Shown here: piece by piece, positions 1,640 through 4,117 of the stretch
Position numbering within the stretch: position 1 is the stretch's first letter
How the letters are laid out: every line of letters starts with the position of its first letter
Source: Candidatus Heimdallarchaeota archaeon
GTDB lineage: Archaea > Asgardarchaeota > Heimdallarchaeia > Heimdallarchaeales > Kariarchaeaceae
Assembly (NCBI GenBank): GCA_030149205.1
Contig: JASBSB010000004.1
Location: forward strand, 150,001 to 182,000
Length of the DNA: 32,000 nt
Direction: 5' to 3'
The notes under the pieces: model-generated
What the model was told of the DNA's origin: nothing
What the model saw: the letters and a program-made list of their open reading frames with translations, nothing else
Databases searched by the model: none
Translations under genes and position numbers: made by a program

Positions 1640-2023
1640 TTGAAACTTATGATCTTCTTATTGTTAGCAGGTCTCTTAGGTGCATTGGGTGTTGGAATTG
1701 GGGCATTTGGTGCTCATATTTTGAAGAGTTCAGTCACCCCTGAAATGTTGAGTATTTATGAGACTGGAGTGTTGTATCATTTAGTGCATTCAGTAGTATT
1801 ACTGGTTATTGCGTTTGCACTTGAAGGAAACCTCCTGAATTCTGAAAAACCTTTGTTGCAAATCTCTTTTTGGTCAATTTTTACTGGTATTATTATATTT
1901 TCAGGGTCGTTATACCTCTTGGTAATTATCAATCAGAGATGGTTAGGAGCAATAACTCCAATCGGAGGTGTAGCATTTATTGTTGGATGGCTGATTCTAG
2001 CCTTTGTTGGATATAAGCATTGA
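1640..2023 (+). CDS. DUF423 (YgdD/TMEM256) family small membrane protein
   Basis: GALGVGIGAFGAH, YETGVLYHLVH, IFSGSLY and LGAITPIGGVAFIVGW match the family pattern; 4 TMs. ATG 1649 is an alternative start. Confidence 0.9.
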   Translation: MKLMIFLLLAGLLGALGVGIGAFGAHILKSSVTPEMLSIYETGVLYHLVHSVVLLVIAFALEGNLLNSEKPLLQISFWSIFTGIIIFSGSLYLLVIINQRWLGAITPIGGVAFIVGWLILAFVGYKH

Positions 2024-2192
2024 AATAAGGATTAATTTTAATAAAGGTCTAGTTAGACTCAATTCATAACTACCTTCATTTTTATAACTTTCTGAAATTC
2101 AATTCTGGTTCGATTAATATTTGTTTAATTTGCTTTTTACTATAATAACAATCCGTTTTTATGGTAAAAATCTTTGGTTTTTAATTTGTGAT

Positions 2193-2432
2193 TAACTGAG
2201 CGTCTGTATTTAGTCAATACAGACATCCAGCTGGATCAAAGATCCGATGTTAGACAGGTAAAACCTGTTGGTGAATATTTTCTTCTGAAAATATTTAAGC
2301 AAATTTCAACAAGATCAGATGATGTTAATCCCCATCATCAGGTCTTGGAGGAATCGGGGGAATTGGATAACTTCCTTTGAAATCCATAATGCATGTATGG
2401 ATGTTCAATTATACCTGATCTACGTACAGTTG
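2193..2432 (+). ncRNA. Candidate structured non-coding RNA or long leader (unknown family)
   Basis: ORF-free 540-bp gap containing at least seven stems: 2202-2210/2216-2224, 2233-2237/2241-2245, 2253-2259/2263-2269, 2273-2282/2287-2296, 2310-2324/2333-2347, 2353-2358/2414-2419, 2361-2367/2404-2410, 2382-2388/2396-2402, plus a closing helix 2193-2198/2427-2432. G-U pairs favour the + strand. Confidence 0.55.
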
Positions 2433-2566
2433 AAAATAATGCGTTTTACTAATAATATTTCAAATTATACAAGGTAGAGACCTGTTCTGGCAAAGTAGGA
2501 ATTTTTAGTAAGTGTTCAAAGACTTGTCATTACTCATTAATATGAGGAAAAAAAGAGGCAATTGAA

Positions 2567-4117
2567 ATGGGTGGAAGACCTTTATGGGGAAAATGCTACT
2601 CCAGACTATTTTATTACAACCTTTTTGATCTTGAAGAATTAAACAAATATTCTCAGCAAATTATTCAAATATTTAACTTTGATCCGGATATATTTACTGT
2701 CATTGATAGAAGCAAATTCACAATTAATACTACAAAAGGTAAGTTGTTAAATAATTTTAAATTAAAGAAGAATGGAACTGTAGAATTTCCTAAAGGATTC
2801 TCACCTATATTTTTGAATTCATTTGGGGCAATCCGCTTAAAAGTTACAAATTCAGATTATTCTGACTATTTAATTCGAAAAAAGGCTGATAACCTATTTC
2901 TAGTGCCTATTAAATTAGAAATTAACAAGAATGACAAAGATTCAAAGCTTGATGTTTTCATAGAAATAATTTCTCCTTGTTGGATTGGGATAGTAGTGTA
3001 TGTTTACAAACCCTTTTCCAAAAAGGAATTAGATAGTTACTTTAAAGGGTTAGAAGATAGGATTTCGAACTCATTAGGGAAATTATTTGGCTTGAAACTT
3101 TCATTTAGCAAAGAAAGGACATCCACTATGCATACTTTTGCTTTTGATAAATTTCAATCATTTAAATCTAAAACTCAATTTACTTTTAAGTTTCCTCTCA
3201 AATATCCCTCAAATTCAGAATTTGCTCTTTTCTCAATCGTAGTTCTGATCAAATTATATGGAATAGGAATTCTAAACGCAGTTTTTAAATCTAAAATTTC
3301 AGAACCTAACATAAACGGTAACTTAGAGAGGTTTTTGGGACTGTGTACGCAGTCACTACTCTTTCAACTCAATCCAGAACTGCTGTTTCCAGGTAAAATC
3401 CAATCTCAATACCTCTGGATCAGAAATTCAGAATTAAGAAATCAGGCCAATCAATTGGTTAACTTGAGAAATAGGGGTCAAATTTTCAGAACGACATTAG
3501 AGATGATACAAAGGATAAACCATGATTTTACTTTGAATTTAAAATATTATATCAATTCACATGTTATGGCTGACCACGTCTACCGCTCAACTATTAAGTT
3601 TGAACTGGCTAAGTTTACCTCTCATTTGCAAACCTCATTTTCTAGGAGCACTAAGGGAGTAAATCTAATTGTAATTAATCTCCTTATCATACTTGCATTA
3701 CTTAATGATTATCAAAATAAGAATCACGAATTCATATACCTCAAAATTTTATCAAGGATTCCTGAACCAATTCGAAGTTATTCACAAAGAAAGGCTCTTC
3801 TTTTGAATAACAAATCATTTGGTCTAAATCTCAATTTACTCAAACAGAATGTAGAAAAGCTGTATACAAACTACAAAAATCTATATACGAACAATCCCAA
3901 AAATTTGAGTTTTAGAAGATCGTCATATTTCACAGAGAACTCTTTGAACACAGTATTACTTCTCAGAGAGAGAGGGATTATCACAAACATTAGATCCGGT
4001 AACAGAATTATTGTAACTTTAAATTTGAAGAACCAATTAATTTCAAGATTATTAGCAATCCCTAATTATCAGGATATCCTATTTAATGAATTATCGTCAA
4101 TACTAGATAATTCCTAA
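2567..4117 (+). CDS. Hypothetical protein (516 aa, basic), possible C-terminal winged helix
   Basis: Long ORF with GAGG 8 nt upstream; no catalytic motif recognised. The C-terminal NSLNTVLLLRERGIITNIRSGNRIIVTLN resembles a wHTH recognition helix plus wing. Confidence 0.75.
   Translation: MGGRPLWGKCYSRLFYYNLFDLEELNKYSQQIIQIFNFDPDIFTVIDRSKFTINTTKGKLLNNFKLKKNGTVEFPKGFSPIFLNSFGAIRLKVTNSDYSDYLIRKKADNLFLVPIKLEINKNDKDSKLDVFIEIISPCWIGIVVYVYKPFSKKELDSYFKGLEDRISNSLGKLFGLKLSFSKERTSTMHTFAFDKFQSFKSKTQFTFKFPLKYPSNSEFALFSIVVLIKLYGIGILNAVFKSKISEPNINGNLERFLGLCTQSLLFQLNPELLFPGKIQSQYLWIRNSELRNQANQLVNLRNRGQIFRTTLEMIQRINHDFTLNLKYYINSHVMADHVYRSTIKFELAKFTSHLQTSFSRSTKGVNLIVINLLIILALLNDYQNKNHEFIYLKILSRIPEPIRSYSQRKALLLNNKSFGLNLNLLKQNVEKLYTNYKNLYTNNPKNLSFRRSSYFTENSLNTVLLLRERGIITNIRSGNRIIVTLNLKNQLISRLLAIPNYQDILFNELSSILDNS

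Follow-up and report, generated by a model that had tools for sequence, protein, structure and literature searches.

The gap and the genes beside it

The window considered here, meaning the whole 32,000-nt stretch of DNA that was analysed, covers C1:150001-182000 of a Heimdallarchaeota genome of 3.3 Mb in 12 contigs that is 93.5% complete and has a GC content of 35.5%. Near its left end an intergenic gap separates two genes, both on the plus strand, and a segment within this gap (hereafter the element) had been flagged as a structured RNA by a model working from the letters alone. The main features of the locus are the following.

1640-2023, plus strand, DUF423 gene, left flank of the gap
2116-2134, plus strand, left arm of an inverted repeat, matching 2637-2651 at 15/15 and 2655-2673 at 17/19 positions
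2193-2432, plus strand, the element, inside the ORF-free gap 2024-2566 (543 bp)
2567-4117, plus strand, 516-aa orphan ORF, right flank of the gap, converging on a TauE gene
2637-2673, plus strand, right arms of the inverted repeat, within codons 24-36 of the orphan gene

The sequence-only reading had described an ORF-free gap of about 540 bp, and this is borne out, as the gap measures 543 bp (2024-2566) and holds no ORF of at least 60 aa, its sole ORF being one of 52 aa at 2319-2477. Gap and orphan gene together (2024-4117) have a GC content of 0.28-0.33, compared with 0.36-0.43 in the flanks. The best matches of the DUF423 gene on the left are at most 60% identical to it, those named to a taxon are bacterial (Hydrogenedentes, Caldilineaceae and others), and only 8 of 47 genomes of the order carry a DUF423 gene. 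This patchy distribution and the bacterial best matches suggest that the gene was acquired horizontally.

The 516-aa protein on the right retrieved only itself from a 5.8-billion word-indexed library and no homolog from a 1.8-billion library of representatives searched exhaustively with HMMER. It has no match in Pfam (even at E ≤10), PADLOC or PHROG and no usable match in an ESM Atlas features search, and the only contigs found to encode it belong to the source assembly. The AF2 single-sequence model, with a pLDDT of 38, is too poor for a fold search. A second strain is represented in run X2, a hydrothermal-vent metagenome of an independent study, by locus fragments that are ~97% identical at ~3x depth (runs X3 and X4 gave no cover of the locus). 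Run X1 is probably the source sample, and the sequencing runs listed for this DNA include no RNA run. Six changes separate the two strains in the orphan ORF, four of them synonymous and the other two conservative (Y>F and F>V), a pattern that weakly supports a genuine gene kept by purifying selection.

The inverted repeat reaches from the gap into this gene. Its perfect 15-nt pairing joins 2116-2130 with 2637-2651, and the repeat pairing forms in the minimum free energy (MFE) fold of 2105-2685, which has a z-score of -4.75. By a rough estimate, several such pairs would be expected genome-wide. The repeat could close a large leader domain, mark the ends of an old element, or be due to chance.

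Fold, strength and strand of the element

The predicted fold on the plus strand is made up of the following hairpins, listed with their mean pair probabilities where these were calculated.

2134-2170, plus strand, AT-rich hairpin of 12 pairs upstream of the element, in the folds of both 2024-2566 and 2105-2685
2202-2224, plus strand, hairpin 1, perfect 9-bp stem with a 5-nt loop (0.97)
2233-2245, plus strand, hairpin 2, 5-bp stem with an AAA loop and two GATC sites (0.99)
2253-2269, plus strand, hairpin 3, uncertain, GACAGGT/ACCTGTT with 7 pairs including one G-U (0.40)
2273-2296, plus strand, hairpin 4, 10 pairs (9 Watson-Crick and a terminal G-U) with a UUCU loop (0.99)
2310-2347, plus strand, hairpin 5, 7 + 7 bp around an A-A mismatch with an 8-nt loop (1.00)
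2354-2380, plus strand, G-rich hairpin, uncertain, an alternative to the nested domain proposed by the sequence-only reading (0.59)
2382-2402, plus strand, hairpin 7, perfect 7-bp stem (0.94)

Every helix that the sequence-only reading listed is present where it was placed, and of the ~240-nt multi-branched RNA that it drew from them, the five local hairpins stand with pair probabilities of at least 0.94, while the closing helix and the nesting have low pair probabilities (0.1-0.4). Specifically, the closing helix 2193-2198/2427-2432 has a pair probability of 0.32, the nested 3' domain (ATCGGG/CCTGAT and AATTGGA/TTCAATT) 0.09-0.14 and the CATC/GATG helix 0.05, and hairpin 3 competes in the MFE structure with a long-range pairing to about 2413-2421. 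A closed multi-branched fold is thus one among several predicted alternatives, and the safe description, as far as the folding model goes, is five stable stem-loops in tandem, each with a sequence of its own. The loop of hairpin 7 (AUGCAUG) is self-complementary, and the upstream hairpin at 2134-2170 overlaps TATA-like hexamers and two T5 tracts.

Folding strength was compared with shuffled sequence, as the sequence-only reading had proposed, and with the rest of the genome. On the plus strand the element folds with an MFE of -77.2 kcal/mol, against a mean of -52.0 (sd 4.1) for dinucleotide shuffles, which gives a z-score of -6.18, far beyond chance; none of the 200 shuffles folded as stably, and the fold stays the same when longer contexts are folded. 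For the native control, ORFs of at least 100 aa were masked and the MFE of 240-nt windows (step 60, both strands) was regressed on GC, yielding 5768 windows from 625 ORF-free gaps of at least 200 nt. Plus-strand windows over the element rank 1, 3 and 4 in GC-corrected MFE (the one starting at 2084 is the 3rd), ahead of gaps with tRNA or rRNA leader sequence in them, and the exact segment 2193-2432 has a robust z of -4.56 among the native gap windows. Additionally, the 240 nt of the element contain four perfect Watson-Crick hairpins of at least 7 bp, where the genome mean is 0.21, and only six loci genome-wide, the element included, reach four or more per 240 nt. The sequence feature is therefore real and statistically exceptional for its own genome. 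It should be noted that the element is the tip of a continuous tail and no lone outlier, the next loci having z-scores of -3.9 and -3.7. Within these bounds it is the genome's best predicted candidate for a structured RNA that has escaped annotation.

The highest hairpin count of the genome is found elsewhere, in a 420-nt stretch of 15% GC at C2:307200-307620 with five perfect hairpins of at least 7 bp.

The strand is less clearly marked than the fold. The sequence-only reading had argued for the plus strand from at least six G-U pairs that work on that strand only, an argument that proves weak: two of the six lie in the robust stems, which comprise 43 Watson-Crick pairs and only those two G-U pairs (the terminal one of hairpin 4 and an internal U-G in hairpin 5), the other four are in weak helices, and the minus strand itself folds with a z-score of -5.23 against shuffles and ranks 17, 65 and 70 of the 5768 windows. 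The MFE difference between the strands, ~10 kcal/mol, is found in 23% of the gap windows of the genome. After composition is controlled for, the plus strand still folds somewhat better than the minus strand and is modestly favoured.

Because the palindromes are perfect, a role of the element at the DNA level is possible, whether as a replication origin (perhaps a single-strand origin), as an attC-like recombination site or as a set of palindromic operators, and overall we regard such a role as improbable. Both strands fold well, the 240 nt contain four GATC sites where about 0.8 would be expected, and the element adjoins an orphan gene of unknown function, which in the origin variant would be the initiator of an integrated replicon. 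In Pfam, however, neither an HUH nor any other recognisable Rep motif was detected for the orphan protein, the Orc1/Cdc6 genes that the genome possesses are on other contigs (C8 at about 249-254 kb and C4 at about 261 kb), no repeated ORB- or iteron-like boxes occur, and the GC skew does not turn at the locus. With no adjacent orc1/cdc6, ORB boxes or skew inflection, a replication origin was rejected. The closing arms loosely resemble, by eye, the R'' and R' cores of attC sites at 6/7 positions each, but attC sites measure 57-141 nt and the element 240 nt, there is no co-oriented array of cassettes, the neighbouring genes being housekeeping genes in mixed orientations, and no tyrosine recombinase (PF00589) lies closer than ~41 kb; an integron attC site or gene cassette was accordingly rejected on length, the missing array and the lack of a nearby IntI. 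An operator array, finally, is at odds with the fact that every palindrome differs in sequence. As the stems all differ, a reading as DNA-binding sites would need a separate protein for each stem, which supports the RNA reading.

Distribution of the element and of the surrounding block

The element is a single-copy sequence: neither blastn nor a covariance model, built from the single sequence and its consensus fold, found a second copy in its own genome, and a MITE or other repeated mobile element was rejected because both recovered this locus only. Outside the genome, blastn gave no match in 40 relatives, and the covariance model none in 46 other genomes of the order or in 150 other genomes of the phylum sample. 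In the 7 other genomes of the order with a DUF423 gene the next gene follows it directly, with no gap, and around these homologs the model with its filters off reached 9 bits at best. When 8.3 kb was compared within the family by blastn, only coding parts matched, at 64-76% identity and with synteny lost; in same-genus genomes the neighbouring ABC-transporter genes are ~66% identical in DNA sequence and gene order is not kept.

Searches of sequence collections gave 0 matches to an exact 22-mer of the element in metagenome and viral contigs and 0 blastn matches of the element to phages and plasmids. A 21-mer from the G-rich junction matched genome contigs twice, both bacterial. One match is in a Bacteroides fluxus sulfatase gene, of which 27 nt encoding LEESGELDN are identical to 2345-2371, and the other in a Desulfobacterales GTPase gene. 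Both encode LEESGEL and tblastn found nothing beyond this motif, which points to chance and not to a pseudogene, so both were read as coincidence.

The sequence-only reading had held that a lack of conservation or covariation in relatives would speak against it, and no match was in fact found. The orphan gene is equally absent from the relatives, though, and they have no gap after DUF423, which makes the locus look like a species-specific insert and not like a failed test. Gap and orphan gene would together form a species-specific block of ~2.1 kb that the relatives are without, and the lack of conservation is for that reason uninformative about the function of the element.

The only comparison within the element comes from run X2, which differs at three positions: 2201 C>T, after which a weak helix would still have a G-U pair there, 2210 T>C, which breaks the loop-closing pair of hairpin 1, and 2212 A>T in the loop. 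All three lie no more than 43 nt from a contig end and may therefore be errors. At 2213-2554 no changes are listed where X2 covers the sequence, the cover being thin and patchy, and indels at 2111-2117 fall where the left repeat arm begins.

No described RNA family accounts for the element. The Rfam 15 scan of the whole 32-kb window at gathering scores gave 0 matches, and a permissive scan (E ≤10) of 1950-2650 gave best scores of 11-17 bits with E-values of 1.7-9 and none below 1, its snoRNA matches appearing only at E ≥3. An identity as RNase P RNA or SRP RNA was rejected, since the genome has its archaeal RNase P RNA (RF00373) at C2:167079-167352 with 140.5 bits and its archaeal-type SRP RNA (RF01857) at C8:238090-238395 with 64.4 bits (E 5e-14). 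A tRNA or tmRNA was likewise rejected, as ARAGORN, run genome-wide, lists none at the locus and RF00005 has no match there. Guide RNAs were judged by eye. A C/D guide sRNA should have RUGAUGA and CUGA boxes 50-70 nt apart with a k-turn, and the element has one 6/7 C-like box at ~2316 and misspaced CUGA motifs at 2195, 2285 and 2416; an H/ACA guide sRNA should have a pseudouridylation pocket and an ACA box after the hairpin, and the hairpins have neither an internal pocket nor a trailing ACA. The missing Rfam match, and RNase P and SRP RNAs located elsewhere, agree with the sequence-only reading, which had recognised none of the known families, and by these sequence comparisons the element belongs to no described RNA family.

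The score of the SRP RNA is below the Rfam gathering score of 96.5 for Archaea_SRP, and default Rfam annotation would therefore miss the gene at C8:238090-238395.

The isolation of the block also bears on whether the element has any role as RNA. It could be a functionless, hairpin-rich, low-GC relic that arrived with the orphan gene or arose beside it, possibly from a decayed mobile or viral fragment, or from palindromes made and kept perfect by template-switch mutation. This reading is somewhat unlikely in our estimation, and several observations are in its favour: none of the relatives searched has the gap or the orphan gene, and DUF423 in relatives abuts the next gene; the block is poorer in GC than its flanks; the near-perfect Watson-Crick stems contain few G-U pairs, suggesting palindromes that are young or act at the DNA level; the perfect 15-nt inverted repeat flanks the region as terminal repeats would; and any genome has some most extreme window, this one having five other hairpin clusters. 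Conversely, a single-copy sequence with no viral, plasmid or metagenome match allows no mobile-element family to be identified, the right arm of the inverted repeat is inside an ORF that appears to be under purifying selection, and without selection or a dedicated mutational process, five independent stems would hardly yield a z-score of -6.2.

Candidate transcription signals and comparison with known systems

Signals that might define a transcript were read against the habits of the genome. Among 1591 promoter-proximal ORFs, TATA-type hexamers (TTTAAA, TTTATA, TTTTAA, TTTTTA) show a sharp peak between -30 and -26 relative to the ATG, and from the position of this peak the genome appears to make mostly leaderless mRNAs. 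In the same ORFs Shine-Dalgarno-like motifs peak at -15 to -6 and involve a smaller set of genes, and tRNA genes have TTTAA(A/G) about 30 nt upstream. Two features at the locus are candidate signals by this standard.

2156-2161, plus strand, candidate TATA box TTTTTA, with a putative start near 2182-2186
2502-2506, plus strand, candidate archaeal terminator, the first T5 tract after the element

The gap contains five T5 tracts (2079, 2134, 2156, 2178 and 2502), none of them within 2183-2501, an arrangement with a probability of ~0.01 if the five positions were uniform and independent; A5 tracts likewise bracket the region, for the minus strand. Competing TATA-like hexamers are present at 2124, 2141 and 2178. 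The orphan gene has signals of its own, with TTAATA (2537-2542) exactly at -30 of its ATG and GAGG (2555-2558) at -12 to -9. AT-rich gaps often contain TATA-like hexamers and T-runs, so calls of promoters and terminators made from them are weak. Even so, the signals would fit a separate RNA of ~320 nt beside an orphan gene with its own promoter better than a leader of at least 375 nt.

We tentatively favour, at somewhat less than even confidence, a species-specific, stand-alone structured RNA of ~320 nt encoded on the plus strand. The transcript would start near 2184, with the TTTTTA at 2156 lying ~28 nt before it, extend across the hairpin body, which is free of T5 tracts, and end at the T5 at 2502, and the orphan gene would be transcribed separately from its TTAATA at -30. 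The hairpins would then act as a stable scaffold or as a protein-binding RNA, and if termination at 2502 were leaky they could shield or gate the orphan mRNA as a structure at its 5' end. We infer the transcription of the element, its strand, its ends and any function from such features. Counted in favour are also the plus-strand orientation of both flanking genes, a TATA-like hexamer at the usual distance of the genome before the element and the retention of the locus in the ~97%-identical X2 strain. Counted against are the lack of a homolog, and hence of covariation, the almost entirely perfect Watson-Crick stems with a minus strand and DNA cruciforms nearly as good, and the facts that the strand asymmetry is ordinary for the genome and that the element is only the top of a continuous tail.

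The sequence-only reading had proposed either a new ncRNA or a regulatory leader of the orphan gene, and while the fold beyond chance and the lack of an Rfam family leave the general proposal standing, its second half is weakened by the promoter geometry. As a predicted long structured 5' leader of the orphan mRNA, the transcript would start upstream of 2116, and 2116-2134 would pair with codons 24-36, enclose the hairpins, the Shine-Dalgarno motif and the AUG, and so control translation or decay. Such a leader would suit the co-oriented gene that begins 134 nt downstream of the element, the GAGG within the Shine-Dalgarno zone of the genome and the inverted repeat, whose 15/15 arm and 17/19 copy both form in the MFE fold of 2105-2685. 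We consider it unlikely nonetheless, given that the genome is predominantly leaderless, that TTAATA sits at the promoter distance of the ATG and that the T5 at 2502 lies between hairpins and gene. Further, three more T5 tracts (2134-2182) follow the proposed start, shuffled targets pair with the element as well as the translation-start region does (p 0.69), and the X2 indels touch the margin of the left repeat arm.

No known prokaryotes are more closely related to eukaryotes than the Asgard archaea, whose non-coding RNA repertoire is, to our knowledge, almost unexplored. If the element is transcribed, it would count as a structured RNA particular to its lineage and linked to an orphan gene, and it would illustrate on a small scale how new RNA-protein pairs come into being. 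Hairpin array and 516-aa protein might even constitute a dedicated, Asgard-specific RNA-protein module, a prediction we hold to be a long shot, and if it were true, neither part would have a relative in current databases. At present the element is the top follow-up candidate in its own genome and not a discovery.

Several known systems resemble the locus in part. The omega RNAs of IscB/TnpB, the msr-msd RNA of retrons and the bridge RNAs of IS110 are also structured RNAs of 150-300 nt upstream of and co-oriented with a gene for ~400-500 aa. The 516-aa protein differs from their partners in having no RuvC, HNH, RT or DEDD domain and no homolog, and the locus differs in being single copy and without element ends; such a cassette was rejected on the lack of Pfam and PADLOC matches and of homologs for the partner protein. 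MITEs and small archaeal palindromic repeats share the strong fold, the AT-richness and the bracketing by a 15-nt inverted repeat, whereas the element is single copy and has many local hairpins instead of one long terminal-repeat stem, and no target-site duplication was seen at it.

The same genome contains a repeat of another kind, ~110 nt long and common to C7:473386-473625 (minus strand) and C2:372966-373080 (plus strand), which has a tRNA-like 3' fragment, GTTCGATTCTAGCC, at its beginning, followed by two perfect hairpins rich in GC. A contig ends at one of the copies, and the repeat may be where an integrated element attached, or it may have caused the assembly to break.

Another likeness, within the same genome, is the cluster at C8:255130-255440, which also has short, sequence-distinct, near-perfect hairpins (six of them) in an AT-rich spacer of ~300 nt. 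It differs in having no sequence or covariance-model similarity to the element and in its position directly upstream of the 23S rRNA gene. On its other side is an orc1/cdc6 gene (C8:253798-254085), and the cluster, which precedes the 5' end of the 23S rRNA gene, may be a pre-rRNA leader or origin-flanking DNA.

Lineage-specific small RNAs and long structured 5' UTRs are known in archaea from dRNA-seq, as in Methanosarcina mazei and Haloferax volcanii. Like the element, they are intergenic and promoter-proximal, measure tens to hundreds of nucleotides, and are often confined to one species and missing from Rfam. They were defined by their transcripts, whereas the element is known here from its sequence; and compared with archaeal sRNAs it is unusually dense in hairpins, stands beside an orphan gene and belongs to an Asgard genome whose mRNAs appear to be mostly leaderless.
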